Positions 1,277-48,900 are shown, counted from the first letter of the stretch. The stretch is 64,000 bases of DNA from Patescibacteria group bacterium (GCA_040384745.1 JAZKIT010000002.1:87425-151424); one strand, 5' to 3'. Numbers and translations are program-made. Notes: generated by a model not told the origin, from the letters alone.

Positions 1277-4200
1277 CTACATTCCCGCGTCAACCTTAGC
1301 GGTGTAGCTCGAGATATCCTCACCTCTTTGAAATGCAGCCAACATTTCCTGAGGTGCGCCCTTTACCTTACCAGCGGCTGTGGCATCGGCATTGAATCGT
1401 GAGATAAATGCCTTTAATTCATCTGGTTTGTCTTTGGCTAGTTTAGCAATAAGCTTCATTTGCGCTGGCTTCGACATTGAAGCGAATCTTTGGGCGCTTT
1501 GATCTGACCAGACGTCTGTCGAGTTTGAAACTTCTTTGAAGGTTTTTCCGGGTTTTTCATTGTTTGCCCAAACTTCAAAATCTCGTCCTGATGCTCGGAA
1601 GTCATTATCGAACGCGAGAATTTCCTTCAAGTCTAATTCGTCCGAGAGTGCTTTGTCGCGGGCCTCTCCTGTGGCCATCGACGCGTTCCCTTCCGTATGT
1701 GAAGATAGTGAGCGTTTGAGCGACTCAATGCCAGGCGACCCGTTTCCGCGCATTAGTTTTGCATATGCAACACGTTCTTCGGTTGTATCAGCGGCTGCAA
1801 ACCGCTGTTCTAGGGCGGAATTATCCGAAGCGACCTCGTACGGTAAGGTTGATTGAATATTCTGAATGTTTTCCATCATCTCTTTTGACTGAGATGCCTT
1901 TGCCGCGGCTGCAACTCTGCGTGCTCCGGCCGCTCCTTGTACTCCAGCCGCCGCTAACGCAACAGCCGTCGGATCACCCGATTTCGTTACGAGCTGCCCG
2001 GTGTAGTCGCTCTGCCTTGCTCTATTCGCGGAATCTAGTCGTGCGTTAGCGACATTATGAGCGACGATTTCATCGAGAGATCGAGCTTGAACTGCGTTTG
2101 CTTCAAGGTCAACGTTTGCAGTTTTCATTGCGTGTTCGGCGTCAGACTTCTGAATGCCGAATTTAGATGCTTTCGGGTCGTTTACCCCAAATGCTGCCGC
2201 TGCCGCCTTGCCCCTTGCGTCAAGCGCTTCATATTTTGAATCGCGGCGCATCCGTCCTCTTCGAAACGCATCTAATCGTCCGATACCTTTGCGCTGCTGG
2301 GCTAGCTCGGTTCGACGGTTGTCGAGACCCTTGCCTATTTGGCTTAATCGGCCACCAAGTTGTTTGCCACCCATTCGGTTGCTTCGGTCGGCTAGCCCGC
2401 TAACCCTTTGCCCTATATTGCCAGCGGCAGACAACGAACCTTTTAATATGGCCGGAACCGCGAATAGCGGAACTGCAAGCACGGCTAGGGCGACAAGTTT
2501 CAGTATCTGTTCATCGTCGCCACCTTCTCCCCCATCGCCGGCGATTCCCATCAGGATGTTCGATGCAAGCGTGCTAGCGCCAAAGACGATGCCGACGATA
2601 GGAAATACCATAAGCGTGGCCACGAAGGCCTTCCACCACTTTTTAAACCAGTCTTCGGTATTTGGTAGCAAGTAGGCGACGAACGCCAGCGGCGATACGA
2701 TGATGAGGATAAGTACGAGCGCCTGGCGGGCAACCAAGATAAGGATGATGACCGCGAGGGCAATAAGAACCGTCGGTGCAAGGGCGATTGCGACGATAAG
2801 CAGCACGCCGACCCCTGCTACGAGCATGGCTCCAATTATTTCAGACCATGTTCCCCCGTCTTCACTAGTACCAGATGCAGCGGCGGGCGTTATTTCTTGA
2901 AAGAACGAATAAATACTACTACCAACAATATTACTGGCGTCGACCATTAACGCGCAGACATAGAACGAAATATTAACTAATATGGCCGCTACTACAATAC
3001 GTGGCAGCATTTTTTTAATGCCGTAATTACTAATTCCGGCGCTGGTAATTTGCGAGTAAACGATGACCATGAACGAAATGACAAAGGCGATATTAGCGAA
3101 GTCACGGAAGGTTGACCATGCGGTTTGCGTACCCTCGTCTTGCACAAGTGCCGGGCGGACTTCAAGCAAGTCTCGCAGGAAGATGAACGCAAGGTCGTTT
3201 ATCGTAGCCAAAAAGTTCATGACCGGGCAAACGATCCAGCCGATGCCATCGATTGCGCAGGTGGTCGTGTCTTCTTCTGAGCTATCTTCTGATCCGCTTA
3301 CTTCAGTGCTCGCAAGTGCGTCGGGGTTGTCGCGTAGCCAGGTGCTATAGGCGCCGGCATTGTCGCGCGCGATATTGACTATTTGGTCACACGAACGCTT
3401 TTGGTAAGCGTCAAAACTGCCGCCGGTGGTCGCAACGTATGCCAGGTTGCTGTCACCCGTTGGTATGCCGACACCCTGAATATAGCGCAGTACCATTCCC
3501 TCACCGTCTGGAACGAACACGGGTACGGCATACTGCGAGTTACTACTGGCCGCGCCGGGAACGTCACCGCTCGATTCGTACAGCGTGGTGTTTGGGAATT
3601 CCATTTGACAGCCGCGCTGGCTGACCAATGTCGCATACGCCCGGACGTATTCCTCGGGCCCTCCGAACGCTGGCTTTTTTGAAAACGCAGCATTTTTAAA
3701 TGACTCAGCTACTTCGTCTTTGTCTTTGTCGTTGTCCCAGTCCTTGTCACCGACGCCAGCAATACAGTCGTCGACATTGCCGTCCTGGCCATCTTCGTAC
3801 TGCGCACCACTCAGGCCACAAAATGCGGTACGCGGGTTATCAAACCCAAGGTACCCGAAGGCCGTTTGAACGAGCGACTCGGTCTGGCAGTCGCGTGTTC
3901 CCTGTAAGTTAGCGCTCGCGGTTTTGCCCGGGTACATGGCGCCAAGTGCTTGGGCGCTGGTGTTGCCTTCAAAGAAGTCCCAGCTGCTCATTTCATTCGG
4001 TGTCACTTTGTCTATGTCGACGTGCCGAAAGCAGGCATATAGCCAGTAGTAGTGCTGGTGAGCGCTGGCGTTTTTGTAGACATCGTCGGCGATAAAGCTT
4101 TCACCGGGCCATTCAGGGGCGGCGCTGGCAGGCTTCGTCAATACGGGAGTTACTAGAGACGCCAGCAGAGAAAAAACGGTGAGCGCGACCACAAAGAAGA

Positions 4201-4285
4201 TTGGATTATTGCCAATCCACGCCAGCGATAGTGTGCGTGCTACCGGATTGTTTCTGTTCCCGCCTGTTCGTCGTTTTTTTGTCAT
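1277..4285 (-). CDS. Large polytopic membrane protein, VirB6/TrbL-like (putative T4SS channel component), paralogue A
   Basis: About 1002 aa. It has an N-terminal TM/signal anchor and a roughly 330-aa Cys-containing ectodomain. The boundary motif is TTCAIDGIGWIVCPVM, followed by a block of several TM helices and then a roughly 430-aa hydrophilic A/K/R/E-rich tail. It shares architecture and the boundary motif with 5361..8603. The start is set at the ATG at 4285 because the ATG at 4303 overlaps a TATAAT box. Confidence 0.6.
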   Translation of the reverse strand: MTKKRRTGGNRNNPVARTLSLAWIGNNPIFFVVALTVFSLLASLVTPVLTKPASAAPEWPGESFIADDVYKNASAHQHYYWLYACFRHVDIDKVTPNEMSSWDFFEGNTSAQALGAMYPGKTASANLQGTRDCQTESLVQTAFGYLGFDNPRTAFCGLSGAQYEDGQDGNVDDCIAGVGDKDWDNDKDKDEVAESFKNAAFSKKPAFGGPEEYVRAYATLVSQRGCQMEFPNTTLYESSGDVPGAASSNSQYAVPVFVPDGEGMVLRYIQGVGIPTGDSNLAYVATTGGSFDAYQKRSCDQIVNIARDNAGAYSTWLRDNPDALASTEVSGSEDSSEEDTTTCAIDGIGWIVCPVMNFLATINDLAFIFLRDLLEVRPALVQDEGTQTAWSTFRDFANIAFVISFMVIVYSQITSAGISNYGIKKMLPRIVVAAILVNISFYVCALMVDASNIVGSSIYSFFQEITPAAASGTSEDGGTWSEIIGAMLVAGVGVLLIVAIALAPTVLIALAVIILILVARQALVLILIIVSPLAFVAYLLPNTEDWFKKWWKAFVATLMVFPIVGIVFGASTLASNILMGIAGDGGEGGDDEQILKLVALAVLAVPLFAVPAILKGSLSAAGNIGQRVSGLADRSNRMGGKQLGGRLSQIGKGLDNRRTELAQQRKGIGRLDAFRRGRMRRDSKYEALDARGKAAAAAFGVNDPKASKFGIQKSDAEHAMKTANVDLEANAVQARSLDEIVAHNVANARLDSANRARQSDYTGQLVTKSGDPTAVALAAAGVQGAAGARRVAAAAKASQSKEMMENIQNIQSTLPYEVASDNSALEQRFAAADTTEERVAYAKLMRGNGSPGIESLKRSLSSHTEGNASMATGEARDKALSDELDLKEILAFDNDFRASGRDFEVWANNEKPGKTFKEVSNSTDVWSDQSAQRFASMSKPAQMKLIAKLAKDKPDELKAFISRFNADATAAGKVKGAPQEMLAAFQRGEDISSYTAKVDAGM

Positions 4286-4343
4286 ATATATAATAGGCCC
4301 CAAGTGAGGCCCATTATACTACGAAACACTTATGCTTACAGTA

Positions 4344-5225
4344 TTAATTGACGGGAACGACTTCGGAAACTTTCCAGACGCCGTCTTCTTGTACCCAGGT
4401 GGCGCGACCGTGTCCGGTTATCGGGGTGCTGTACGTTTCAGTGATGAATTCGTGAGCACGGTTTTGGTCGGAGTTGTCTTGACGGGTGTATTCGTATTCG
4501 ACGACGATTTCGCTACCATTGTTTGACAGCTCGACGGCCGACGTCAATGTCGTACTGTGTTCGTATGGCTCGACATCCAGCGAGTTGCCCGTGTCGGTCG
4601 TACCCATGTTGGTCAGTACGACTGCGTAATGGTTTCGGATATTGTCGTTGACTTCCCGTGCGAGGTCAGGCCGCTGTTGCCAGTCGCTGACATACAGGAC
4701 TGAAACGTAGGCGTCGTCGACCGGCTTGTTTAGCTCGGCGATGTACTGGTCGCGAGTGATTAGCGGGTCCTCATTGGCTTTCGTCTCGGGAGTCGCGCCG
4801 GTCATGAGCCATTCATTTTCCTGTTCGAATATCGCATACATGAGTGATTCGCCGTCATTGTAGCGTTCGACGGTCAATTCAGTTGGACCAACACTGGTTG
4901 TTTCGGGGGTAGCAGTTACTTCCGGAGTAGTTTCGGTAGTTGGATCAGATGTAGCTTCAGCGGTCGCTTCGGTCTGGCCTGGGTTGGGCGAAGATGTAGC
5001 GGCCGGGTTGCGTTCTGGGTTAGGGCTGGAGTCATTCTCTCCCTTTGTCAGGTAAAATCCACCGCCAATGACAGTTGCTGCAACTGCAGCGGCAAGTCCT
5101 GCGACCATTCCCTTTCGTCCTTTGCCTCCATCAACGGTGGCTTCGACATGCTGGCGTGCGGCGTCTTGTTCGGCCGGGGTTGCATTTGGGTTTGCTGGAA
5201 CTGGTCGTTCGTGACTAAGACTCAT
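4344..5225 (-). CDS. Membrane-anchored protein with T/E/P-rich linker and NTF2-like C-terminal domain (possible VirB8/PrgL analogue)
   Basis: It has one N-terminal TM helix (GLAAAVAATVIGGGFYL) and a low-complexity linker (TSSPNPGQTEATAEATSDPTTETTPEVTATPETT). The globular C-terminus ends WVQEDGVWKVSEVVPVN, a typical NTF2-like terminal strand. The VirB8 analogy is inference from topology and position. Confidence 0.5.
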   Translation of the reverse strand: MSLSHERPVPANPNATPAEQDAARQHVEATVDGGKGRKGMVAGLAAAVAATVIGGGFYLTKGENDSSPNPERNPAATSSPNPGQTEATAEATSDPTTETTPEVTATPETTSVGPTELTVERYNDGESLMYAIFEQENEWLMTGATPETKANEDPLITRDQYIAELNKPVDDAYVSVLYVSDWQQRPDLAREVNDNIRNHYAVVLTNMGTTDTGNSLDVEPYEHSTTLTSAVELSNNGSEIVVEYEYTRQDNSDQNRAHEFITETYSTPITGHGRATWVQEDGVWKVSEVVPVN

Positions 5226-5360: not shown

Positions 5361-8300
5361 TTACTTCTTGTCGACCATTGTTAGGGGGTCGTACTCCGTT
5401 GGAATCAATCGACCGGCGGCAGTCTGGACCTCGGCGGTAGAAGGTGTCGGCGTCGTTGGGTCGAGGTAGAGCTTCATGGCTTCAAGGGCTCGCTTGTGGC
5501 GAGTTTCGAGCTTAGCGCCGATGATTGGGTCGTTCATGGCTTCATCGATAACCTCGACGTAGGCCTTGCGGTTGGCTTCGCCTGTCCTTGCGAGTTCCGA
5601 AGGATTGTCACGGAAGACCTGAAGGCTACGAACCATCTCGTCGATGTCCATCTTGCCAACCCTGTCGGCTTTGATTTTACCGGTGCCGATGTCGCGTAGA
5701 ATCGCAACTTCCGTGCCGGCCCGGTAGGTACCGGTTTGTAGGTTTGCTTTGTCTGTTCCGCTTAGGTGTGTGACCTGGTGTCCTGTCTTGGCCATGGCGT
5801 CGGCGTAAATCTGCTGGAGGTTGCGTCGTCGCTCTACTTCGTCATCGTCGAGAGTACTTGTCTTGGTCGTGTCTGCTGCGTCGTAGTAATTGCCATTTTC
5901 AAACTGCATACCTTGGGTAGCGATGTAGTCAGACATTTTTTGCATGGCGGTGTTGTTGGCTTTTTCCGAAGCGAGCTGCTTTATGGCCGCGTGGATGTGC
6001 ATATCGGTTGCCGGTTCGTTACCGCGCAGCTTACCGGTTTGGTATACCTCAATCAGTTCCTCGGGCTGGTAACCTTCGTTACTGAAGGTGCTTTCGACGG
6101 CCTCGACGTTTTGCATGTGGAGGGCTGAACCTTCCTTGTACAGTTGCGCGACCACCTTGGTACGACCATATTCATCAACACCGGCGGCACGATCCAGCAG
6201 GTTATCGTCGGCCATTAGGCGTTTTGTTAGGTTTGATTTGACGACATAGGTTGCATTAGCCTTGCGCTTCTCTTCGACCTCGATGGTTTCTTCGGACTGG
6301 CGGATGATGTCGATTTGATCAGCGACCTGGCTGGTTATTGGTCCATGGCGCCTTTGGTAGTCGTCGGTTCGCCCAGCGCTGGCTTCGACCAGGATTGATT
6401 CCCATTCGGCCTGGAGTGACTTGAGGTTCTTGGCGTTGGCCTGGCGTTCGAGCTGGCGAGAATAGACGGTGCGGTCAGTTAGGGTAATATTCTCCCAGTT
6501 CGCCTTAGCGGCGTCTTCGACCAGTTCGTTGGCTTGATTTGCTCGCCCCTGGAATTCCTGTGTCTTAATGACCTGATTTTTGAGCGTCGCGTCAGTGAGG
6601 ATGGTTTCGGCAAGCTGGGCCGAGCCTTCAACTTCGACAATCTTGGCGGCGTTTTCGCCGATACCCTTTTGGACGACGGTACGGATCTTGGCGGCACGAG
6701 CGGCGGCGTAGCGTGGCGTGGCTCCATTTGCGATGCTTTGGTTTAAGAAGCTGGTGTCGGCTTCGTTCATCTCGTCCTCATCGATCTTGGCGAGGCCGGT
6801 CGTTAGGCGAGTTTCGGTTTGCATGGCACGACGGGTAGAGTCGGTCTTTAAGAGGTCTTGCCAGTGTTGCTCGTTGTGCGATTCATGAAGGTTATGGGCA
6901 AGCTGATTGTCGCGCTTGTAGGTGTCGAGATTGCCGTAACCACGGACTGGTCGGCCAGTAATTCGACTACGGACGTCGTCTCGGACTTCGCGGTTGTCAC
7001 CACCCCAGCGGCCGGTTTGGCCGTGCCATTCGTTTTTAGCTCGCTCTTCATCGAGTCCCTTTTCTGCTTCGCGGGAGTTGTTCTTGGCGTATGAACGAGC
7101 GGCCGAGCGACGCATGTGCTGACCAAAGACCCCCGTGCGGAAGCCATTAGTACGCTGCAGTTCGGCATTCTTGGCGTTGTTACGGGCAACGTGCTCGCCG
7201 AGGCGGTCTTTATTGTAGTTCTTGTAGCGGTCGTAGAGTCCACGTTGTGGGTTGTTTATGATGCCCCCGAAGCGGTTCAGTATGCCGCCACCAAGCTTGA
7301 GGAGGAGCGGCGTAATCGCCAGAGGCGCGACCATAACACCAAGCCCTAAGATAATCGTTTCGATAGACGTAGCGCTTCGGATGATGACTTCTCCGGCGAG
7401 CTGTGCACCACCAAACACGGCACCGAATGCCGGGAACATGACAAGCATAGTGAAGAACAGGCTGCGCCATTTTTCAAACCACTTCTCGGTGTTGGGTAGT
7501 ATATAGGCCGCGAATGCCAAAGGCGCGATAGCGATAAGAATGACGATAATTGCCTGGCGCGCCGCCAGAACGAAGAACGTAACGAAGGTAAGCAGTGCCC
7601 CGCCGAACAAGAAGGGCGCCAGCATGTACCACAGGCCGGTGACGGCCGCACCGGCTGCCCCGGCGGAAAGTGCCGTGAACCCGACTGCTGCCCCGGTGCC
7701 ACCCGCCAGTACCCAGGCGGTGACGCTGGTCCAGTTGACGTCTTCGGCGGTATTTGAACCCGGTAGGACGTCGTCGCGGACCGATTCGAACAGCTGGTTA
7801 ACGCCGTAGCCGGCAATATTACTGATATCAACGGCTGCCGCACAAATGAGGTAACTGATGTTAATAAGGATGGCGACGATGACCAGCCGCGGGAGAATCT
7901 TGCGAATCCGGTAGGCGTCAAAGCCGCCCCCGACGAGGTAGCTGTAAATGATGACCAGAAAGCCGATAACGAAGGCGACATTAGCCAGGTCTCGCGAATA
8001 GACCCATACGCGGTAGATGGGGTTGTCGACCGATGTGGTGATGGGTTGGACTTCAAGGAAGCCGCGAATGCGTTCGAAGACCCAGTCCATGCCTTCGGAT
8101 ATGGCCCACATGACCGGACAGACGAGCCAGCCAACGCCTTCGATGGTGCAGTTGTTCGTCAACGAGTCGTCGGTATTGGCTATCTCGCCTGCAGGTACAG
8201 GGGTGAGCGTGATGCTTTGCTTGCCGCTTTGGTTGATGTAGCGATTGGGTGGATTAAGGGTAAAGCGCACATAGGTGGCTTCTTTTTCGCTTTTGGGTTC

Positions 8301-8603
8301 GACCACGCCATTGGCGAAGTAGATGAAGTAGACGAGGTTAGGGTTGACCGAGCTGTCGGTGTACTGGTAGATAGCCGGGCTGGCTTTTATGTCGCTTGGA
8401 AACGCGCCGATTGGGTCGACTTGGGCATATGTGTTGCCGTCGTAGACGATTGAGTCGCCTTGCCACGTAGCATCGGCCGCACTAACAGAGGGAGCGGTCG
8501 TAAAAATATACGCGAAACAGGCCACAAAGAACGTGGCCAGCAGCATGCTGAATTTCCGCGGGTTATTGCTACCACGCGGAGCTCTAACGAGAACTTCCCA
8601 CAT
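5361..8603 (-). CDS. Large polytopic membrane protein, VirB6/TrbL-like, paralogue B
   Basis: 1080 aa. It has a signal peptide (FAYIFTTAPSVSAADA), an ectodomain, the boundary motif NNCTIEGVGWLVCPVM, a multi-TM block and a roughly 620-aa hydrophilic tail. It is a paralogue of 1277..4285. Confidence 0.6.
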   Translation of the reverse strand: MWEVLVRAPRGSNNPRKFSMLLATFFVACFAYIFTTAPSVSAADATWQGDSIVYDGNTYAQVDPIGAFPSDIKASPAIYQYTDSSVNPNLVYFIYFANGVVEPKSEKEATYVRFTLNPPNRYINQSGKQSITLTPVPAGEIANTDDSLTNNCTIEGVGWLVCPVMWAISEGMDWVFERIRGFLEVQPITTSVDNPIYRVWVYSRDLANVAFVIGFLVIIYSYLVGGGFDAYRIRKILPRLVIVAILINISYLICAAAVDISNIAGYGVNQLFESVRDDVLPGSNTAEDVNWTSVTAWVLAGGTGAAVGFTALSAGAAGAAVTGLWYMLAPFLFGGALLTFVTFFVLAARQAIIVILIAIAPLAFAAYILPNTEKWFEKWRSLFFTMLVMFPAFGAVFGGAQLAGEVIIRSATSIETIILGLGVMVAPLAITPLLLKLGGGILNRFGGIINNPQRGLYDRYKNYNKDRLGEHVARNNAKNAELQRTNGFRTGVFGQHMRRSAARSYAKNNSREAEKGLDEERAKNEWHGQTGRWGGDNREVRDDVRSRITGRPVRGYGNLDTYKRDNQLAHNLHESHNEQHWQDLLKTDSTRRAMQTETRLTTGLAKIDEDEMNEADTSFLNQSIANGATPRYAAARAAKIRTVVQKGIGENAAKIVEVEGSAQLAETILTDATLKNQVIKTQEFQGRANQANELVEDAAKANWENITLTDRTVYSRQLERQANAKNLKSLQAEWESILVEASAGRTDDYQRRHGPITSQVADQIDIIRQSEETIEVEEKRKANATYVVKSNLTKRLMADDNLLDRAAGVDEYGRTKVVAQLYKEGSALHMQNVEAVESTFSNEGYQPEELIEVYQTGKLRGNEPATDMHIHAAIKQLASEKANNTAMQKMSDYIATQGMQFENGNYYDAADTTKTSTLDDDEVERRRNLQQIYADAMAKTGHQVTHLSGTDKANLQTGTYRAGTEVAILRDIGTGKIKADRVGKMDIDEMVRSLQVFRDNPSELARTGEANRKAYVEVIDEAMNDPIIGAKLETRHKRALEAMKLYLDPTTPTPSTAEVQTAAGRLIPTEYDPLTMVDKK

Positions 8604-8724: not shown

Positions 8725-9129
8725 ATGAAAATAAAACAAATAGTAGTTTCTTTAATGCTTCCGGCATTACTGTGTGGCTTCGTCGCCGCAAGCCTTACTA
8801 CCAGCGCGGCTGGTGCCCAAAACACCTGTGGTGGCGTGGACACTTCGATTATCGCGTGTGATGCCAAGAACTCTAAAGGTGGCGGCACCGAAGACAATGG
8901 CGTGTGGGCGCTGCTGCTAATCGTGGTGAATATAATGACCGCCGGTGTCGGGATTATCGCGGTCGCGGGAATCGTCTACGGAGCGATTTTGTACACCACT
9001 GCTGAGGACAAGGCCGACCAAGTAAAGAAAGCCACCGACATTATTACGAATGTCATAATCGGACTGATTTTGTTCGCGTTGATGTACGCGGGACTGAACT
9101 TTATCGTACCGGGAGGGGTCTTTGCATGA
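8725..9129 (+). CDS. T4SS-pilin-like small membrane protein (TrbC/VirB2-like), copy P1
   Basis: It has a signal peptide, a Cys-bounded loop (TCGGVDTSIIAC) and two C-terminal TM helices separated by a short polar turn (YTTAEDKADQVKKATDII). It is the first of seven tandem genes. Confidence 0.7.
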   Translation: MKIKQIVVSLMLPALLCGFVAASLTTSAAGAQNTCGGVDTSIIACDAKNSKGGGTEDNGVWALLLIVVNIMTAGVGIIAVAGIVYGAILYTTAEDKADQVKKATDIITNVIIGLILFALMYAGLNFIVPGGVFA

Positions 9130-9629
9130 TGTATAAACTGTCCAGCTTATTTATTGCATTAGCCTTGATGGTCGGCGTGAGCGCGCTACTGTTGCCAGCT
9201 CAAGCGGCACACGCGGCAAAATTTGGACCGGGAGCAACCGGTGAAGGCGGCCAGTCCTGTGCTTCGAGCTTTCTAGGCTTCCCTGCTTGGTTTGACGGCC
9301 TGCCTCGTAAGCCGGACACCTGTCAGGTGCTGGTGTCTGAAAAGACCGAAGTCGACGATAACGGCAAGACCGTCGAGTTGGCTGATCAAAACGATTTAAG
9401 CAACTTCATTTTTATGATCATTTTGAACGTTATTGAAATTGCTCTCAGGCTGATTGGGTTTATAGCGGTCGGATTCATTATTTACGGCGGGTTCAAATAC
9501 CTTACCAGTGCCGGTTCGGCAGATCGCATAACAGCCGGCCGTAAGATTATTCAAAATGCGGTAATTGGCTTGGTGATTTCGTTCTTCTCGGTAGCGATTG
9601 TTAACCTCGTAGCGGGGAATATAGGGTGA
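9126..9629 (+). CDS. T4SS-pilin-like small membrane protein, copy P2
   Basis: Its start overlaps the P1 stop (ATGA). It has a signal peptide (PAQAAHA), a Cys...Cys loop (SCASSFLGFPAWFDGLPRKPDTC) and the same C-terminal TM-turn-TM pattern (GGFKYLTSAGSADRITAGRKIIQNAVIGLV). Confidence 0.7.
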   Translation: MMYKLSSLFIALALMVGVSALLLPAQAAHAAKFGPGATGEGGQSCASSFLGFPAWFDGLPRKPDTCQVLVSEKTEVDDNGKTVELADQNDLSNFIFMIILNVIEIALRLIGFIAVGFIIYGGFKYLTSAGSADRITAGRKIIQNAVIGLVISFFSVAIVNLVAGNIG

Positions 9630-9919
9630 TGAACCTTCTGTCTTACCTTGCGGCTCGAATTCCGGCTGGTGGCGAAACGGGTATTCCTGTCGTCACCGCT
9701 GAAAACGCGGTGAACGGTATTTTGAATACGGTGTACCTTGCTGCTGGAATTATTGCGGTCATCGTCATTATCATTAGCGGTATGTTTTATGTCATTTCGC
9801 AGGGTGACCCAAGTAAGATCAAGCGCGCGAAGGATGGTATATTATATTCGGTCGTCGGGCTTGTGGTCGTACTGTTCGCATTCATCGTGACGAATTATGT
9901 AATAGGAAGGTTTGTGTAG
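9626..9919 (+). CDS. T4SS-pilin-like small membrane protein, copy P3 (short, no Cys loop, no obvious signal peptide)
   Basis: A GTG/ATG start overlaps the P2 stop. The C-terminal pattern is SGMFYVISQGDPSKIKRAKDGILYSVVGLVVVLFAFIVTNYV. Confidence 0.65.
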   Translation: MMNLLSYLAARIPAGGETGIPVVTAENAVNGILNTVYLAAGIIAVIVIIISGMFYVISQGDPSKIKRAKDGILYSVVGLVVVLFAFIVTNYVIGRFV

Positions 9920-9923
9920 CATT

Positions 9924-10301
9924 ATGATGAGGCAAAAAATGAAGCGTATCGTATTGGCTGTCGCCATGGTACTTGGCGCCGGGGTATTCGCGGCTCTGCC
10001 GGCTGGAGCGATTAACGTATATAAGGCATGTAACGCAGCCAATGCATCTGAACCGGTTTGTCAGGCAACTGGCGAGACGGTCGATGGACCTGTTCAGGCG
10101 GTGATATCGACGTTGCTCGTTGTGATCGGAATCGTTGCGGTTATCATGATTATCGTAGGCGGCATTCGGTACACTCTGTCGAATGGCGATGCCTCACAAA
10201 TCAAATCGGCCAAGGACACTATTTTGTACGCGGTTATTGGGCTGGTCGTGGCAATAATGGCCTATGCGATTGTTAACTTCGTAGTATCACGGTTCGTCTA
10301 A
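9924..10301 (+). CDS. T4SS-pilin-like small membrane protein, copy P4
   Basis: It has a signal peptide (ALPAGA), the Cys loop ACNAANASEPVC and the conserved GGIRYTLSNGDASQIKSAKDTILYAVIGLVVAIMAYAIVNFV. The start is uncertain (9924, 9927 or 9939). Confidence 0.7.
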   Translation: MMRQKMKRIVLAVAMVLGAGVFAALPAGAINVYKACNAANASEPVCQATGETVDGPVQAVISTLLVVIGIVAVIMIIVGGIRYTLSNGDASQIKSAKDTILYAVIGLVVAIMAYAIVNFVVSRFV

Positions 10302-10317
10302 AAATTATTAAGGAGAA

Positions 10318-10737
10318 ATGAATATGATAACGACACTTCTGCACAAACTAAAGATCTCAGTATTTGTCGCTGCTGGTATAGTAGCGATCGGTTTAGCCTC
10401 GCCTGCCCCGGCGGCGATGGCGATTGACTGTGGCACTGGCGGCACCGACGCCGGCAAACCGGCCTGTAAAGTCCAACAGGGTGTTACTAAGGCGGGCGGT
10501 GCCGGTCAAGATCTTCAGCCGCAGATTCAGAACGCTATCAATGTGCTGCTGTTCATCATTGGTGTGGTTGCGGTCATCATGATTATTCTTGGTGGACTAC
10601 GGTACATCCTGTCGAATGGCGACTCGGCCCAGATTACCAGTGCTAAGAACACTATTTTGTACGCGGTCATCGGACTCGTCGTTGCACTCCTCGCCTATGC
10701 GATTGTTAACTTCGTAGTGGTGCAGTTTGTAGCATAA
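10318..10737 (+). CDS. T4SS-pilin-like small membrane protein, copy P5
   Basis: AAGGAG lies 4 nt upstream. It has a signal peptide, the Cys loop DCGTGGTDAGKPAC and the conserved GGLRYILSNGDSAQITSAKNTILYAVIGLVVALLAYAIVNFV. Confidence 0.75.
   Translation: MNMITTLLHKLKISVFVAAGIVAIGLASPAPAAMAIDCGTGGTDAGKPACKVQQGVTKAGGAGQDLQPQIQNAINVLLFIIGVVAVIMIILGGLRYILSNGDSAQITSAKNTILYAVIGLVVALLAYAIVNFVVVQFVA
10615..10682 (+). repeat. 68-nt block identical to 11053..11120 (P5/P6)
   Basis: The string aatggcgactcggcccagattaccagtgctaagaacactattttgtacgcggtcatcggactcgtcgt is read identically in both genes, while the flanking codons differ at many synonymous sites. Confidence 0.9.
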
Positions 10738-10770
10738 TGAAACAATTTGGAAAGAAAGGTACTAATTAAA

Positions 10771-11190
10771 GTGAAATCAATACTATACTCGTTCATTACT
10801 CGAACTATGGTTGCGGCGTTTATGGTTATCGGGGCGACCGTCGCGGTCGTGCCAGCACTGACGGTTCAGGCCGCCTGCGACACGACGGCAAAAGTTACCG
10901 GTGTCGGTCAAGGTGCGGAGTGTAGCAAGTCTGCCCAGCAGCGAGGCAATCTTGGTAATGTTATTGAAACCGTGACAAATGTCCTACTGTTCATCATCGG
11001 AGCGATCGCGGTCATCATGATTATCATCGGTGCTATCAAGTACACCGTCAGCAATGGCGACTCGGCCCAGATTACCAGTGCTAAGAACACTATTTTGTAC
11101 GCGGTCATCGGACTCGTCGTCGCGCTGCTTGCTTATGCGATTGTTAAATTCGTTACCGACGCATTTATCATGAAGCCTGGAGTCTCGTAG
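10771..11190 (+). CDS. T4SS-pilin-like small membrane protein, copy P6
   Basis: It has the Cys loop ACDTTAKVTGVGQGAEC and the conserved GAIKYTVSNGDSAQITSAKNTILYAVIGLVVALLAYAIVKFV. The start is uncertain (GTG 10771 or TTG 10747). Confidence 0.7.
   Translation: MKSILYSFITRTMVAAFMVIGATVAVVPALTVQAACDTTAKVTGVGQGAECSKSAQQRGNLGNVIETVTNVLLFIIGAIAVIMIIIGAIKYTVSNGDSAQITSAKNTILYAVIGLVVALLAYAIVKFVTDAFIMKPGVS
11053..11120 (+). repeat. 68-nt block identical to 10615..10682
   Basis: Same string as at 10615..10682. Confidence 0.9.
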
Positions 11191-11262
11191 CTGATAGCCC
11201 TTAACATTCACACCGACATCTGATATAAAAGAAGCAAGATTACCTGAAAGGAATACACAATT

Positions 11263-11667
11263 ATGAAAACAGCAATCACTAACATGGCGAAAGGCCTATT
11301 GGTTGTTCCGGCGCTCGCGCTCGCGCTAAGCTTTGCGGCGGTGCCAGCGGCCGAAACAACTTCAGCCTTCGATCAAGGCATTACTGACGGTGCCAATTCG
11401 GCACAAGGCACGGACCAACAGTCGGACCTATTTGGCACGACCGGTATCTTCCGCACCATTACTAACGTTCTATTGTTCCTTATCGGTGCAGTATCGGTGA
11501 TCATGCTGATCATCGGTGGTATTCGTTACACCGTTTCTGGCGGTGATAGCACGGCGGTTACCGGTGCGAAGAACACCATCCTCTATGCGATTGTTGGAAT
11601 CGTCGTCGCGCTACTGGCATTTGCCGTGGTCAACTTCGTACTCGGCAGTTTCTCTACTGATAACTAG
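11263..11667 (+). CDS. T4SS-pilin-like small membrane protein, copy P7 (no Cys loop)
   Basis: AAAGGA lies upstream. It has a signal peptide (VPAAET) and the conserved FRTITNVLLFLIGAVSVIMLIIGGIRYTVSGGDSTAVTGAKNTILYAIVGIVVALLAFAVVNFV. Its closest relative is the remote copy at 13534..13941. Confidence 0.75.
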   Translation: MKTAITNMAKGLLVVPALALALSFAAVPAAETTSAFDQGITDGANSAQGTDQQSDLFGTTGIFRTITNVLLFLIGAVSVIMLIIGGIRYTVSGGDSTAVTGAKNTILYAIVGIVVALLAFAVVNFVLGSFSTDN

Positions 11668-11694
11668 TCCCCCGCGCATCTAGTCGCAAAAAAA

Positions 11695-11723
11695 CCACTG
11701 GTCAAGTCACCAGTGGTTTTTTT
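11695..11723. terminator. Rho-independent terminator after the pilin-like array (bidirectional shape)
   Basis: CCACTGGT-caagtc-ACCAGTGG followed by T7 and preceded by A7. Confidence 0.8.
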
Positions 11724-11762
11724 ATTGAAACCAAGTACTGACAGTACTTGTGCCGCTGTCTA

Positions 11763-11800
11763 AATAAAAATACCGCCCGAGTGTAGGGGCGGTATTTTTT
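11763..11800. terminator. Bidirectional terminator, serves hsp20 on the minus strand
   Basis: TACCGCCC-gagtgtag-GGGCGGTA flanked by an A-run and T6. Confidence 0.8.
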
Positions 11801-11815
11801 ATAGCTTTTTAAAAT

Positions 11816-12304
11816 CTAGTTGATCATGATTTTCTTAGCTTGCTCTTGCTTCACTTTACCGAAGCTAATGGTCAGGACGCCGTCCTTCAACATTGCTTCG
11901 ACTTCATCTTCTCTGACTGCAACAGGCAATGCGACTGTGCGGCTAAATTCGCCCCAGTAACATTCCTGGATGTGCCAGTTTGTCGCGTCGCTATCATCGC
12001 CGCTCGAAAGCGTGCCGCTGATAGTCAGAATGCCGTCAGAAATACTGACATCAAGGTCTTCTTTGTTCACACCTGCGGTGCGAGCTTTTACGACCAGCTT
12101 CTCGTCCGTTTCGTAAACGTCGACAGCCAGTTGTCCAGGAAAATCTTCTTCCCCTTCTTCCCAGTTGTCGTCGCTACCCTGCGGTGCAGCTTGCTGCGGT
12201 GCGTCACTTTGCTGGGTCAGTTCGTCGTCGTTTAAAAACGCCGCTGCCAGCTCATCTTCAATTAATAAATCATCGTTTTGTTTACGGGCCATTGGTTCCT
12301 CCAC
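11816..12304 (-). CDS. Hsp20/alpha-crystallin family small heat-shock protein
   Basis: It has an acidic N-terminus and an alpha-crystallin core (LAVDVYETDEKLVVKARTAGVNKEDLDVSISDGILTISG...GEFSRTVALPVAVREDEVEAMLKDGVLTISFGK). A GGAGG SD is present. Confidence 0.9.
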   Translation of the reverse strand: MEEPMARKQNDDLLIEDELAAAFLNDDELTQQSDAPQQAAPQGSDDNWEEGEEDFPGQLAVDVYETDEKLVVKARTAGVNKEDLDVSISDGILTISGTLSSGDDSDATNWHIQECYWGEFSRTVALPVAVREDEVEAMLKDGVLTISFGKVKQEQAKKIMIN

Positions 12305-13096: not shown

Positions 13097-13186
13097 GGAG
13101 AGGTGACCGAGTGGTTTATGGTAACGGTCTTGAAAACCGTCGTGGTGTTAAAGCTACCGAGAGTTCGAATCTCTCCCTCTCCGCCA
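13097..13186 (+). tRNA. tRNA-Ser (anticodon UGA), CCA encoded
   Basis: Acceptor GGAGAGG/CCTCTCC. Anticodon stem ACGGT/ACCGT with loop CTTGAAA. Long variable arm. T-arm with GTTCGAATC. Confidence 0.9.
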
Positions 13187-13221
13187 AGAAAAACGACGAC
13201 CGTCTGGTCGTCATTTTTCTT
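13187..13221. terminator. Hairpin terminator after tRNA-Ser(UGA), bidirectional shape
   Basis: AAGAAAAAC-GACGACC-gtct-GGTCGTC-ATTTTTCTT. Confidence 0.75.
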
Positions 13222-13508
13222 GGCTGTTCGGTTAAGATTTGAACTCTCGGGTGCCGCGAAGTGGCACGAACCGAGAGTTCGGTGCAGCGAATGAAGTGAA
13301 AAAGTGTTTACATTTTTTCACGAACGAGCGGAAAAGCAATCTATGATTGCGCTATCTTTCTCTTCTCTGGGGGGGGTGACCGCCCGATGAGCCCTGCGTA
13401 AGCACTCATCGGGCGGGACTGGCGGTAGTGGGAACCCGGAGGGGCAATGCTCTAGGCAGAGCGCCTGGGTCGGACTTCCGTCAATCTAAGCTCCCTCTTC
13501 AGGAGCCT
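13222..13508 (-). ncRNA. Candidate structured non-coding RNA of unknown class. Strand and ends are tentative.
   Basis: This non-coding block is GC-rich, whereas the other spacers are AT-rich. It contains several strong hairpins: an 11-bp stem CGCCCGATGAG/CTCATCGGGCG, GCTCT/AGAGC, GCAATC/GATTGC and GTGAAAAA/TTTTTCAC. A G8 run sits at 13369-13376. The minus-strand extended -10 TGCTAAAAT (13515-13523) lies just after the P8 stop, and the bidirectional terminator at 13187-13221 could end the transcript. Confidence 0.35.
13236..13281 (+). repeat. Hairpin built from copies of the upstream tRNA T-arm (element A)
   Basis: The 5' arm gatttgaactctcgg is the reverse complement of tRNA positions 13157-13171 (14 of 15). 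The 3' arm ccgagagttcg is an exact 11-nt direct copy of 13157-13167. There is an inner hairpin GTGCC-gcgaagt-GGCAC. Confidence 0.8.
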
Positions 13509-13533: not shown

Positions 13534-13941
13534 CTAGACGTTCGTACCAGCAGAACTACCGGCGGTAAAGCTGTTGAGTACGAAGTTGATGATGGCGTAG
13601 GCCAGTAAGGCCACGATAACACCGACGATGGCATACAAAATGGTGTTCTTGGCCGCCGTGACCGCTGTGGCGTTGCCGCCAGACACGACGTAGCGCAGCC
13701 CACCGATGATAATCATGATGACTGAAATCGCGCCAAGTACGAACAGCAGGACGTTGGTAATAGTTCGAAAGATACCAGTTTGGCCGAACAAGTCGGTTGT
13801 CTGGTCAGTTCCGCGGGCAGAATCGGCGCCACCCTGTATGCTGCCGTCGAATCCCATGGCGGTCGGTACGACCATGACCGCAAGTGACAGTGATGCGACA
13901 AGAATTGATGGAGCAAGGCTTCGGATAACGTTCTTGATCAT
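13534..13941 (-). CDS. T4SS-pilin-like small membrane protein, remote copy P8
   Basis: AAAGGA lies 5 nt upstream of the ATG at 13941. FRTITNVLLFVLGAISVIMIIIGGLRYVVSGGNATAVTAAKNTILYAIVGVIVALLAYAIINFV is close to P7 at the protein level. Confidence 0.75.
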   Translation of the reverse strand: MIKNVIRSLAPSILVASLSLAVMVVPTAMGFDGSIQGGADSARGTDQTTDLFGQTGIFRTITNVLLFVLGAISVIMIIIGGLRYVVSGGNATAVTAAKNTILYAIVGVIVALLAYAIINFVLNSFTAGSSAGTNV

Positions 13942-14142
13942 GAGGTTCCTTTGATTAATCGTTATCTTTAATATAAGCAATGCTACGCGAAAAGTCTACC
14001 CACCCGCCCCTGTTATGTGCTACAATTACTCAAGTTGGCGCCCAAGTGGCTGCTGCGTGAAACGCAAATCAAAGACGGTTAAACCGGCCCCGCGGTATGC
14101 TTTCACCGGTACATTCTGAAGCGCGAACGACTTATGCCCTAC

Positions 14143-14333: not shown

Positions 14334-14387
14334 CAGACGCTGTTATTTTAATTGACTCCTCTACACGTGACATTCATAATGCTCTTA

Positions 14388-14957
14388 ATGCTTAAACACA
14401 AACATAATGGATTTACGATAGTCGAATTACTCATCGTAATCGTCGTTATTGGGATTCTTGCGGCAATAACCATCGTTGCCTATAACGGTATTCAGGTCAG
14501 GGCTAAAAATACATCCGCTGCTTCAACCGCTAAAGGAATGGTTTCTATGCTCAAGACGTATTCTGTTAGTAATACGACATTACAAGCAAATACCGTTACT
14601 AAAGACCACCTTTGCTTAGGCAACCCAGGAGAGTTCCCTGCGATTTCTGGAATGGGAGCTGGGGAATGTCGTAACGACATTGGCATGGGAAATTGGAAAG
14701 CTGATGATAATTTCGCGTCCGAGCTTGGCAAAGTCGGTAGGGCATCGAGTGCTACAGCGCTAGTGACTGCAACCGACGGCCAAAGGTATAGGGGCATTTG
14801 GTACGACGATAATAGCGCTACCGACCCTAGGGTTTACTATGCACTTCAAGGAGCAAGCCAAACGTGTGCAGTGAGCGGGGCGACTGCAGTGAGCGGTAAT
14901 GGAATTACTATATGCAACGTCAGAATAGACTTCATGATTAACTACCTCGCCCCCTAG
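14388..14957 (+). CDS. Type IV pilin (prepilin N-terminal cleavage/methylation domain)
   Basis: MLKHKHNG|FTIVELLIVIVVIGILAAITIVAYNG is a class III signal peptide. CATAAT (14375-14380) lies 7 nt upstream and there is no SD. Two upstream in-frame ATGs are less likely. Confidence 0.85.
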   Translation: MLKHKHNGFTIVELLIVIVVIGILAAITIVAYNGIQVRAKNTSAASTAKGMVSMLKTYSVSNTTLQANTVTKDHLCLGNPGEFPAISGMGAGECRNDIGMGNWKADDNFASELGKVGRASSATALVTATDGQRYRGIWYDDNSATDPRVYYALQGASQTCAVSGATAVSGNGITICNVRIDFMINYLAP

Positions 14958-15117: not shown

Positions 15118-15642
15118 TTAAAGTTGGACGGGCATGGCCGTCCGGCATATGGTGCCGGACCCATTGGGGGCCGAATTGAGGAAATAGCCGCTACTGATTA
15201 CAGGGCATGTCACGCTGGACTGTAGGATGTACGCGATATACCAGCCGGTGTAGTTACCGCCTTTAGTCGTGTCGGGTTCGGTGCCGTAAGAGAGGGTCAT
15301 ATTAGCGGGAGCGGGTTGTGTGGGATAGCTTGGCGATACCTGTCTAAGAGCAGTCATGAGAATATCGCTATCTGCCTGAACTGCGCCTGCCCAGCAGCTC
15401 GCCGTGCCGTCGAAGCATGCTCTTAAGGTCAGCCCTGCTGGGTATGAACCGTTTTGCACCAAGTAAAGACGGAGTGTCTTGGCATGGGTTGAGACAATTG
15501 AGTGCGTTTGGGTGTTGGCAGTTTTGGTTTTGACTCCGTTGAACGCAATGACGGCGATACTGGCGAGAACACCGATGACCACGATGACGATCAGGAGTTC
15601 GACTATCGTGAAGCCGCGATTGATTTGTAGCATTTTGCCCAT
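15118..15642 (-). CDS. Type IV pilin
   Basis: MGKMLQINRG|FTIVELLIVIVVIGVLASIAVIAFNG. The minus-strand TGCTATACT (15651-15659) lies 8 nt upstream of the ATG. Confidence 0.85.
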   Translation of the reverse strand: MGKMLQINRGFTIVELLIVIVVIGVLASIAVIAFNGVKTKTANTQTHSIVSTHAKTLRLYLVQNGSYPAGLTLRACFDGTASCWAGAVQADSDILMTALRQVSPSYPTQPAPANMTLSYGTEPDTTKGGNYTGWYIAYILQSSVTCPVISSGYFLNSAPNGSGTICRTAMPVQL

Positions 15643-17875: not shown

Positions 17876-18403
17876 ATGAAAACGCAAAAAGGCTTCACGA
17901 TAGTCGAGCTACTGATAGTTATAGTAGTCATGGCTATCTTGGCCGCGATAACAATTGTAGCGTTTAATGGTGTCCGTCAGAGAGCCGAAGACACCAAACT
18001 TGTTTCTGTTATCAATAGTTACATAAAAGCCGTAAAGTTATATAAAGCCGAAAACGGTACTTATCCGAATGTTTCAACGTTTTGTCTTGGCGTAGAGGGT
18101 GATTTGCCAGCAACTGCCAGGTTTGCCAATAATATCTGCGGCCAAGGTAACTGTGGTAACTGCTTGCGCAATGACACTTTAAACGCTGCACTCGCGCCTT
18201 ATATGAAAACTCCGCCCCGTGCCAACTTTACGGAAGAATTTCTTAGAAATAACGGGCAATACTTACGAGGCATAATATATTCGGGCGACGCCGGCTCATA
18301 CTACTACTCGTACCCAATCAAACCAAATCGGTCTTGCCCCATAGGTAATGTTGAATTTACCGAAACCAATGTAAGGAGTTGTTATGATTATGTGGATAGT
18401 TAA
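17876..18403 (+). CDS. Type IV pilin
   Basis: MKTQKG|FTIVELLIVIVVMAILAAITIVAFNG, with several Cys in the C-terminal head domain. Confidence 0.85.
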   Translation: MKTQKGFTIVELLIVIVVMAILAAITIVAFNGVRQRAEDTKLVSVINSYIKAVKLYKAENGTYPNVSTFCLGVEGDLPATARFANNICGQGNCGNCLRNDTLNAALAPYMKTPPRANFTEEFLRNNGQYLRGIIYSGDAGSYYYSYPIKPNRSCPIGNVEFTETNVRSCYDYVDS

Positions 18404-45962: not shown

Positions 45963-48900
45963 ATGACCGAAGCTAATCTTCAGACTATAATCGCCAAATA
46001 TCTAGAAGAAATAACGGAACAGTTTTACAGTGGCCATGCCATAGAGCATGCATACCGTCCCGCGCTGCAGACATTGATGTCTAGCTTTGAAGACACGGTA
46101 GCGGTCAACGATCCGAAACATTCCGAACATGGTGCACCGGATTTTGTATTTTTAAAAAAATCGAACACCAAAATTATCAAAGGCTATGCCGAAGCCAAAG
46201 ACATCACGGTTAGTCTCGATAAGACTGAGAAGACCAATCAGATGCAGCGCTACGGTGGTTACGCCAATCTGTTCCTGACAGATTATTTGGAATTCCGTTT
46301 TTTCAAAAACGGTGAAAAATATCAGACGATTAGTCTAGGACATGTTAAGGACGGCAAGCTATATAAGACGCCAGAGAACGGTGAGATGTTGGCACGTGAG
46401 CTGGCTGCATTTTTGGAATTACCACCAGAAAAAATCAAAAGTGGGCGACGCTTGGCGGAAATCATGGGCGGCAAGGCGCGCCGTATTCGCGACAATGTTG
46501 TACAGTACTTGGCCGAAGATGACGATAAGTCGACTGAGTTATTAAAGATCTACGAGATGATGAAAAAACTTCTCGTGCACGACCTTACCGAGGAAAAGTT
46601 TGCCGACATGTACGCTCAGACGTTGGTTTATGGTTTGTTCGTTGCGCGTTACGGCGATAGCACACAGGAGTCGTTCGATCGCAGCGAGGCACGCGACCTA
46701 GTACCAAAAAGCAATCCATTCTTGCGACATTTCTTCGACCACATCGTCGGACCGAACTTCGATGTTCGACTCGGCTACATCGTAGATGAACTATGCGAAG
46801 TTTTTAGCGTGTCGAACGTGCAAGAGATAGTCCATAAACATCTACGCATCCAGGACGAAACCAGTGACTCTAAGGACCCGATCATACATTTTTATGAGGA
46901 TTTCTTACACGAATACGACCCTGCTGAACGCAAACGCATGGGCGCGTACTATACTCCGATTCCGGTGGTAAAGTTCATCGTCCGCCATGTCGACAAGATA
47001 TTGAAAGAAGAATTCGGCATTACTAAAGGTTTGGCGAGTGACCAAACCATCGATCACTGGGTCGAGACCGGCCAGGACATGCGTGCCGACAAGCGTACCA
47101 AGCTTAAGACTGGCTATAACGTCAAACTGCCTCGTGTTCAAGTGCTCGACCCGGCCGTCGGCACCGCTACGTTCCTCAACGAAACCATAAAGTTCATTTA
47201 CGAGGGCTTCAAGGGCCAAGAGGGTAGGTGGCCTGGCTATGTTAACGACAACCTAGTGAAACGTCTGCACGGCTTCGAGCTGATGATGGCGCCGTATACT
47301 ATCGCGCATCTCAAGCTCGGTATGACGCTGAAAGAAACTGGTGTCGAAAACTTGAAAGACCGCCTCGGCGTCTACCTCACGAACACGTTAGAAGAAGGCG
47401 TTCCAATGCAGCCTGATTTGTTCAGCTTTGGCTTAGCCGAAGCCGTCAGTGACGAGTCGCGCCATGCCGCCGAGATAAAGAGCGAGCGACCAGTCATGGT
47501 AGTGATGGGCAATCCGCCGTATTCCGTCAGTAGCAATAACAAGAGTAAATACATAGAAAATCTGGTCGCCGACTATAAGAAGGATTTGAACGAGCGCAAT
47601 ATTCAGCCGCTCAGTGATGATTACATCAAATTCATCCGCTTTGCCGAGGAAATGGTTGCCAAAAACGGCAGCGGAATTGTGGCTATGATTACGAATAATT
47701 CCTATATCGACGGTCTGATTCACCGCCAAATGCGTAAGCATTTGCTACAGACGTTCGACAAGATTTACGTACTAGACTTGCACGGTAACAGCAAGAAAAA
47801 GGAAGTTGCTTCAGATGGCGGTAGGGATGAAAACGTGTTTGATATTCAACAGGGAGTCGGAATTATCTTCGCTGTTAAAACAGGCAAAAAACAACCAGAT
47901 ACACTTGCTGACTTATTCCATGACACAGTAAAAGGAACACGAAAATATAAATTTGAGTATCTTGATAGCCACGGAAATGGAAGTGAGTTTGCTTTTGTCC
48001 AGAAGCCTATTGCGCCTAGATACGCATTCGGATGGGAGAATACGTTAGATGCGAGCGAGTATTCGAAGTACGTAAGTGTAAGGGAGTTAATGCCCGCTGG
48101 CGATGTCGGAGTGGCATCGTATCGAGATAGTTTCGCAACAGATATAGAAAAAGACCTTCTCGCACAACGCATGCGCGATTATTACACCGCTCCAACGCAA
48201 GACCTTGTTAGTAAGTATGGACTAAAAGAATCAAAAAGTTTTTCTATCCAAGAACGTCGTCAAGACGCTCACTTTGATGAAACTAAAATTAAAAAAATTC
48301 AGTATAGACCTTTCGATTCAAGATGGATTTATTACTCAAGCGATGTCGCAGATCGGCTAAGACCGAAAACTTCAAAACACATGTTGAAAGAGAATTTGGC
48401 CCTAAGTGTTCTTAGGAATTCTAGAGATGCTGAAGTCAATGACAAAGTTTTTGTTGTAGACATATTGGCCGATAAAAGCGTTACTTCTTCTCTGGACAAT
48501 GCGGTAGTCTTTCCGCTTTACTTACATAACGAAGACGGCACTCGCACCCAAAACTTCAACCCAGCCGAACTTTCCGCACTCAAGCGCAATCTTACGGCCG
48601 GTTCGTCGCCAGAGGACATTCTGGACTACATCTATGCGGTTCTCCACTCGCCGGCCTACCGTGCCAAATACAAAGAACTCCTAAAGATCGATTTCCCACG
48701 TGTGCCAGCACCAGCCAGCGACACCGAATTCACCCGTCTTGTCGTCCTTGGCCGACAACTCCGCGAACTTCACCTCATGAAATCACCATTTATCGCCAAC
48801 TACGACACCACATACCCCGAAGCCGGTAGTGATGAAGTCGAAAAGATCAGTTTCGCTACAGACATTACGGGTGGTGGTCAGTACGCTACAGGTAGTGTAT

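Follow-up and report, generated by a model that had tools for sequence, protein, structure and literature searches.

What does a bacterium do with a long tandem series of pilin-like genes next to its type IV secretion system (T4SS) genes? The question is raised by a stretch of 64,000 nucleotides from a Patescibacteria group bacterium (GCA_040384745.1 JAZKIT010000002.1:87425-151424), which we analyzed as a whole and call the window. In it, seven small open reading frames (ORFs), P1 to P7, follow one another on the + strand (8725-11667), divergent from a - strand gene for a VirB6-like protein of 1080 residues (5361-8603). A first-pass annotation, made from the sequence alone, had read the products as T4SS pilin-like proteins with an invariant membrane hairpin and hypervariable tips bounded by cysteines. 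It proposed a surface-display or host-specificity repertoire or, alternatively, a major pilin accompanied by several minor or tip pilins. The seven ORFs exist as described, and the alternative of a major pilin with several distinct pilins fits our results better. The array members are better supported as old, conserved, and distinct subunits than as a fast-changing surface repertoire, and we consider, with a probability of about 0.68, that they are non-redundant pilin-like subunits of one heteromeric T4SS-associated structure on VirB6-like proteins. This kind of array is already known and the window adds no new kind of system: it is the T4SS pilin operon of Saccharimonadia, which corresponds to SEML1_0014-0019 of S. 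epibionticum ML1 and has P6 as an additional gene.

Eight members of the T4SS pilin family

All eight proteins, including an unlinked eighth member, P8, match the family PF18895 (T4SS_pilin, gathering cut-off of 26.6 bits). P2 to P8 score above the cut-off and P1 below it, with E-values ranging from 1e-5 to 5e-13 across P1-P7. P1 (8725-9129, +) belongs to the most divergent pilin class and falls just under the cut-off with 26.0 bits; proteins of this class are recovered by the hairpin profile and have homologues with a weak PF18895 match. It comprises a signal peptide (residues 1-31), an ectodomain (32-60), a hairpin (61-134), and a C-terminal PGGVF motif. P2 (9126-9629, +; 28.2 bits) has a signal peptide (1-30), a long ectodomain (31-95), and a hairpin (96-167). 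P3 (9626-9919, +; 44.2 bits) is of a short class, with 97 residues and a GTG start. P4 (9912-10301, +, with a start probably at ATG 9927; 41.0 bits) and P5 (10318-10737, +; 49.4 bits) are of a core type, and P5 has an AAGGAG ribosome-binding site upstream. P6 (10747-11190, +; 45.6 bits) is a lineage-specific extra pilin, and P7 (11263-11667, +; 37.0 bits) is the last gene. P8, which the first-pass annotation had already counted with the family, is on the - strand (13534-13980; 32.2 bits). A profile built from the eight pilins found no further copy in the window. An entry of NCBI that is 100% identical to P7 is named 'MAG: pilin [Patescibacteria group bacterium]', and the AlphaFold2 model of P7 is a two-helix hairpin (helices 62-91 and 96-132) with a predicted local distance difference test score of 87-98. 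The T4SS-pilin-like identity proposed at the outset is thus upheld by the matches of all eight proteins and by the linkage to VirB6-like and PrgI genes.

Two other families gave matches close to their thresholds. No pilin reached that of PF04956 (TrbC/VirB2, 27.9 bits): the best was P4 with 27.0 bits (E=5e-6), P3 had 19.3 bits, and the others had no match. The equivalog threshold of NF045849 (Mbov_0395 pilin-like conjugal transfer, 40 bits) was not reached either by P4 (39.5 bits), P3 (39.0), P6 (34.2), or P5 (33.9). These near-threshold matches lend support to a remote kinship with the T4SS pilins of monoderm systems. As a side observation, the scores of P3 and P4 on NF045849, a Mycoplasma integrative and conjugative element family, hint that such pilins may be original to monoderm-type T4SS and not borrowed from diderms.

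The genes P1-P7 look like one operon, because a strong terminator follows P7 and the genes overlap or are closely spaced. The overlapping stops and starts described earlier hold for P1/P2 (4 nt, ATGA) and for P2/P3 (4 nt, GTGA, at 9626-9629), whereas an overlap of P3 and P4 would require a P4 start at TTG 9912; alignments of orthologues and the start-codon context favour ATG 9927. The predicted intrinsic terminator (11688-11723) is two-way, with A7, an 8-bp stem, a 6-nt loop, and T7. A second hairpin lies 3' of it (11766-11799), and the fold z-score of the region 11668-11810 is -7.9. The 121 bp between the VirB6-like gene and P1 (8604-8724) are presumably a promoter region and carry promoter-like hexamers on both strands, which are consensus matches only.

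Old pilin classes in a conserved order

If the array were a repertoire of interchangeable pilins, whose differing exposed loops widen the host range or evade recognition as suggested for Bartonella and Anaplasma, its members should be recent and lineage-specific copies. Related loci give a different picture. We fetched 80 loci via the VirB6-like protein, all 80 of them from Saccharibacteria, and six more via homologues of P7. In about 55 loci the array has the identical place and orientation and a conserved order: P1, P2, a short P3 (always of 93-108 residues at position 3, or fused behind P2), genes of the P4/P5 type, and a P7-type gene in the last position, often with a P8-type gene nearby. 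To quantify positional orthology, we recorded the class of the best match in every other genome among 13 diverse genomes. The best match was in the same positional class for P1 in 100% of the cases (156/156), for P2 in 100%, for the last gene in 88%, for P3 in 76%, and for the mid-array genes in 62%. Hence, positional orthology holds across the class for P1, P2, P3, and the last gene, and recent copies are confined to P6 and some of the mid-array genes. The classes P1, P2, P3, P4/P5-type, and P7/P8-type are old and syntenic.

The sequences within these classes are conserved as well. Orthologues of P1 keep the motif C-G-G-x-x-T-x-[IV]-x-x-C, with nine residues between the cysteines in 15 of the 16 two-cysteine orthologues, and those of P2 keep C-x4-FLTFPAW[YF]xGL...C. 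Both motifs are kept across genomes whose VirB6-like proteins are only 35-50% identical. P7 is the best-conserved member of the array (hairpin identity to orthologues of 79%). Its closest paralogue, P8, shares 64% of the ectodomain and 83% of the hairpin with its orthologues. At the other extreme, the ectodomain of P5 is the least conserved among orthologues, with a mean identity of 21% vs 66% for the hairpin. The N-terminal segments described as unrelated are indeed so between paralogues of the window (9-28% identity, unalignable, with the exception of 55% for P7/P8), but they are conserved between orthologues. Calling the hairpin invariant was, in turn, an overstatement: paralogue hairpins share 23-71% identity, with 6 invariant columns across the seven, and the consensus quoted for them fits P4-P8 and only loosely P1-P3. 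We also observed that orthologues of P1 in the loci L007, L008, and L081-L083 have N-terminal insertions of 0 to about 120 residues before the CGG..C loop, some with added cysteines; of all parts of the array, the N-terminus of P1 varies most in length from lineage to lineage.

The first-pass annotation had proposed a test for diversifying selection on the cysteine loops. Region-pooled Nei-Gojobori ratios of nonsynonymous to synonymous substitution rates (dN/dS) in 15 close genome pairs gave no support for it: they were 0.00-0.25 for ectodomains and 0.02-0.16 for hairpins, and pooled ectodomain dN/dS exceeded 1 in none of the 15 pairs. The ectodomains change faster than the hairpins, yet the paralogue classes are under purifying selection.

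Experimental data from a relative are in line with distinct functions. S. epibionticum ML1 has six pilin genes on the + strand (399, 558, 312, 381, 384, and 417 bp), all of which were scored essential by transposon sequencing (Tn-seq), while the separate pilin gene SEML1_0024, the counterpart of P8, was non-essential (Wang et al. 2023, Cell, PMC10633639 Table S1). The essentiality of all six array genes argues against redundancy, and it weighs against interchangeable variants together with the positional orthology, the conserved loops of P1 and P2, and a dN/dS well under 1. A variable repertoire is favoured by the contrast between unalignable paralogue ectodomains and related hairpins, by the 1 to 4 mid-array genes that arose by independent duplications, and by the poorly conserved ectodomains of P5-type pilins. 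It was also raised tentatively for Patescibacteria arrays (PMC12102498). On balance we regard it as improbable, and the conserved order in about 55 loci, the P1 and P2 loops, and the essential ML1 genes do not support the hypervariable host-specificity repertoire proposed initially.

A recurrent P2-P3 fusion and a mosaic P5/P6 pair

In the window, P2 and P3 are separate genes that overlap by GTGA. In at least 12 loci, a single fusion gene encodes both, as a protein with two hairpin domains. These loci fall into two distant groups (L003, L005, and L081-L086; L070, L072, and L076-L078), with fusion proteins of 229-275 residues (e.g., L084:6231-6956), and L073 has a protein of fusion length whose best matches are P2 and P3. 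The fusion fits the predicted topology, since the C-terminus of P2 would be outside the membrane and P3, which lacks a signal peptide, would begin outside. Fusions of P2 and P3 imply a fixed partnership, which is a further argument against interchangeable pilins. Two side observations concern these loci. The fusion linker in L003 and L005 bears its own cysteine pair. In L070, L072, L076, and L077, which belong to the fusion clade with distant VirB6-like proteins, no P1-type ORF separates the VirB6-like gene from the fusion gene, and P1 is either missing or located elsewhere.

P6 is the only recent member of the window's array, related to P5 in its 3' half and unrelated to it in its 5' half. 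The 3' hairpin DNA of the two genes is 82% identical (dS of 0.56-0.69), while the region encoding signal peptide and ectodomain is saturated (dS of about 2.3). We found no orthologue of P6 in L003, L081, or L084, and the sixth gene of close relatives was derived independently, from P7 instead. The mosaic suggests that P6 originated by chimeric duplication or gene conversion. Recombination between copies, which the mosaic suggests, speaks for a variable repertoire. Fast positive selection was considered as the source of the difference between the P5 and P6 ectodomains and rejected, because the synonymous sites are saturated there too.

Predicted outward-facing ectodomains with paired cysteines

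Signal peptides were judged by a rule of thumb (small residues at -3/-1), and topology was assessed from hydropathy and charge. All pilins but P3 have signal-peptide-like N-termini, and all have two C-terminal helices that are strongly hydrophobic in every member (Kyte-Doolittle of 2.3-3.2). A signal peptide, two hydrophobic helices, and a short charged loop are the layout of VirB2/TrbC, which the family shows except for the missing signal peptide of P3. The inter-helix loop is net positive in P2-P8, that of P1 has a net charge of -1, and the ectodomains are acidic. We predict that the inter-helix loop faces the cytoplasm and that the N-terminal segment is extracytoplasmic. The outward position of the variable part, as the first-pass annotation had it, is thus predicted from signal peptide, positive-inside loop, acidic ectodomain, and paired cysteines.

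The segment that separates the signal peptide from the first hairpin helix contains exactly one pair of cysteines in P1, P2, P4, P5, and P6, as was noticed at first reading; P3, P7, and P8 have none, and ectodomain cysteines are absent from all 36 orthologues of P3. The pairs are Cys35/Cys45 in P1 (loop CGGVDTSIIAC), Cys45/Cys66 in P2 (enclosing the conserved motif FLGFPAWFDGL), Cys40/Cys50 in P4 (kept in close orthologues), Cys38/Cys50 in P5, and Cys44/Cys59 in P6. The numbers of residues between the cysteines are 9, 20, 9, 11, and 14, respectively, which corrects the spacings of 10 and 21 given earlier for P1 and P2. Among 302 distinct pilins, 152 have no ectodomain cysteine, 18 have one, 121 have two, and 11 have three or more. 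Cysteine makes up 2.9% of ectodomain residues, more than in the background (0.58%) or in the hairpins (0.32%). Judging from these sequences, the pairs are a real feature of the family, and they would fit disulfides formed outside the cell.

The topology bears on two further explanations. In the original reading of the array of TM7x, the proteins are secreted effectors or toxin subunits exported via the T4SS, by analogy with pertussis toxin. Their N-terminal Sec signals and their position beside T4SS genes were taken to indicate this (PMC7427843), and the label persists in later papers. The reported similarity to subunit S1 of pertussis toxin amounts to 11% identity, there is no soluble domain, and every member matches a pilin family. 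We consider this reading very improbable and rejected soluble secreted subunits, given that each protein ends in two strongly hydrophobic helices.

The hairpin proteins could instead remain in the cytoplasmic membrane, where they would form a hetero-oligomeric ring or an accessory to the T4SS channel, with no extracellular pilus. Hairpins of the ATP synthase subunit c type are among the structure matches, the same class was found for SEML1_0018 (PMC10633639 Table S2), P3 lacks a signal peptide, and a conjugative pilus has been seen on no monoderm according to the literature. Against this, family and genomic context indicate pilins that assemble on VirB6, a functional surface on the outside is suggested by the paired cysteines and by the conservation of the outward-facing motifs, and a related Saccharimonadia parasite shows a tube of 8.6-9.0 nm by cryo-electron tomography (cryo-ET), the parts of which are unassigned. 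A purely membrane-resident complex is in our view unlikely, though less so than a variable repertoire.

A proposed heteromeric structure on a VirB6-like platform

We favour a model of a single heteromeric structure to which each pilin makes a non-redundant contribution. This structure would probably assemble on the neighbouring VirB6-like platform, in the way that has been proposed for VirB2 (on VirB6) and PrgF (on PrgH). Subunits would pack through their hairpins, with the inter-helix loops lining the lumen and the N-terminal segments outside. P7, which we infer to be a candidate major subunit, and its like would form the bulk of the structure. P1-P3 would have specialised roles, at the base, as adaptors, or at the tip, and P2 and P3 would sit side by side in a 1:1 ratio.

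Several points weigh against this model. No filament made of the array proteins has been seen, and the roles given to individual paralogues are inference only. The essentiality of the upstream genes in Tn-seq could reflect polarity on the last gene. The number of P4/P5-type mid-array genes, as said above, differs between loci. Some ectodomains diverge fast between close genomes (dN of 0.245 for the P5-type pilins of L004/L006; dN/dS of 0.67 for the first gene of L047/L050), and pooled pairwise dN/dS is insensitive to positive selection at few sites. Comparisons of structure and remote homology also gave little. A Foldseek search of the P7 model against the PDB had no significant match (best E-value of 1.8), and the conjugative pilin of the archaeon A. 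pernix (8dfu) came at rank 24 (E=6.5, TM of 0.51 on the target), the hairpin being too simple a fold to discriminate. A PDB sequence search with the profile returned only a chance match to MacB, and hhalign against Agrobacterium VirB2 gave a probability of 0.1%, in what is a weak test with a single-sequence template.

A more specific version of the heteromeric model is tentative and rather doubtful. In M. amalyticus, a Saccharimonadia parasite, cryo-ET shows a tube that measures 8.6-9.0 nm across and 61-70 nm in length and has a density at its tip (PMC11880426). Six to eight pilin classes stacked in a fixed order on the VirB6-like platform might be this 'lance' or conduit, about 9 nm wide, 60-70 nm long, and barbed at the tip. 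P7-type pilins would then form the tube, P1, P2, and P3 the base, adaptor, or barbed tip, with P2/P3 as a 1:1 pair, and the disulfide-stapled loops would be the outer surface that meets the host envelope. The link between this tube and the pilin array is speculation; if true, it would mean a heteromeric T4SS tube in a monoderm.

Genes around the array

The T4SS core genes near the array are those of PrgI and two VirB6-like proteins, all on the - strand. The PrgI family (VirB3-like) protein (247-1248) matches PF12666 (E=1.7e-14). The VirB6-like protein next to P1 (5361-8603), whose ML1 counterpart is SEML1_0013, has a weak match to PF04610 (TrbL, E=0.083) and is 33% identical over 411 residues (E=6e-58) to a second paralogue of 1008 residues (1277-4303). 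The searches of Pfam and NCBIfam with these two large genes of the window gave almost no match; their identity as VirB6-like is given by the PF19590 (TrbL_3) matches of the homologues of both and by the annotation of ML1. A gene of 293 codons (4344-5225) lies between the two paralogues, both of which are conserved in related loci. We found no VirB4 in the 64-kb window; in ML1 it is located beyond PrgI.

The right flank of the array holds genes for Hsp20 and a ComF-like protein, a tRNA-Ser gene, P8, and type IV pilin-like genes, and the remaining content of the window consists of housekeeping genes. The Hsp20 gene (11816-12304, -) comes directly after the pilin operon, as in every related locus that we checked. 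Its ML1 counterpart was scored essential, and a link to pilin handling is possible. After the tRNA-Ser(tga) gene (13097-13186) comes a 45-nt inverted repeat (13157-13201 / 13206-13250, 80% complementary), the first arm of which includes the 3' end of the tRNA gene. The repeat may act as a terminator or be left over from an integration site; in ML1, an additional gene of 1.4 kb occupies this spot. Three small genes (14352-14957, +; 15118-15642, -; 17876-18403, +) carry the type IV pilin N-terminal methylation motif PF07963. They are located a short way past P8, so that genes for type IV pilin-like proteins and for T4SS pilins are neighbours. Farther away, a Type ISP restriction-modification enzyme of 1047 residues (PF18135, PF02384) is encoded at 45963-49106 (+), in a stretch of lower GC content (0.45-0.47).

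Comparison with known systems

The closest known system is that of S. epibionticum ML1, which we compared by published tables and not by sequence. To the left of its array, PrgI, a VirB6-like gene, a small gene, and a second VirB6-like gene lie on one strand, as in the window. Its pilins, of 132, 185, 103, 126, 127, and 138 residues, are divergent from these genes, PF18895 is assigned to each of them (PMC10633639 Table S2), and they occupy matching positions. To the right follow Hsp20, a ComF-like gene, tRNA-Ser, and a further pilin on the opposite strand. The difference lies in the number of array genes, six in ML1 and seven in the window, which has P6 in addition.

Similar arrays are widespread. 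The T4SS of Saccharibacteria is essential for growth on the host, and reviews call the pilin array its most unusual feature. It was seen across Saccharibacteria, including TM7x, and read as a set of Sec-exported effectors (McLean et al. 2020, PMC7427843); three of the six array genes of TM7x rise in stable symbiosis. A survey described 441 arrays in Patescibacteria, with 2-11 genes and a mean identity of 25%, and suggested versatility toward hosts (Quinonero-Coronel et al. 2025, PMC12102498). These arrays resemble ours in their tandem PF18895/PF04956 genes near T4SS genes, in the low identity within arrays, and in their abundance in Saccharimonadia. A term search of both texts found no mention of positional orthology, P2-P3 fusion, disulfides, or signal peptides. 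Both works lean to host-range versatility or effectors, neither of which is favoured by the present data.

Other T4SS pilins are more distant. PrgF is a VirB2-like pilin of a Gram-positive T4SS, for which assembly on a pentamer of VirB6 has been modelled (ter Beek et al. 2025 preprint). PrgF and the NF045849 family resemble the pilins of the window in belonging to a monoderm T4SS, in their small size and two helices with a charged loop, and in having their genes near VirB6. However, those systems are conjugative, lack a cysteine-looped ectodomain, and in the inspected examples have one candidate per plasmid that is modelled clearly as a pilus, whereas there are 7-8 differentiated copies here and neither relaxase nor coupling protein is reported for ML1. 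The classical VirB2, TrbC, and TraA resemble the array pilins in their signal peptide, pair of hydrophobic helices, basic loop, and gene linkage to VirB6, but they are single genes of diderms. The statement that classical loci carry one pilin, made at the outset, is incomplete in view of the published Patescibacteria arrays and of the multi-copy virB2 genes of Bartonella and Anaplasma (cited in PMC12102498). The latter are likewise tandem VirB2-like copies in host-associated T4SS. They have been interpreted as variants that serve to evade immunity or bind hosts, while most copies here are ancient, differentiated, and conserved.

Type II secretion systems and type IV pili, with their major and minor pilins, and the paralogues of the flagellar rod combine a shared packing helix with distinct outer parts in one axial structure. 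The resemblance to the array is an analogy only; the folds and the assembly machines are unrelated. Taken together, the comparison leads away from a model of antigenic variation or of effectors, and the conserved distinct subunits, the outer loops of disulfide type, and the recurrent P2-P3 fusion point toward a heteromeric structure with a defined order of subunits.

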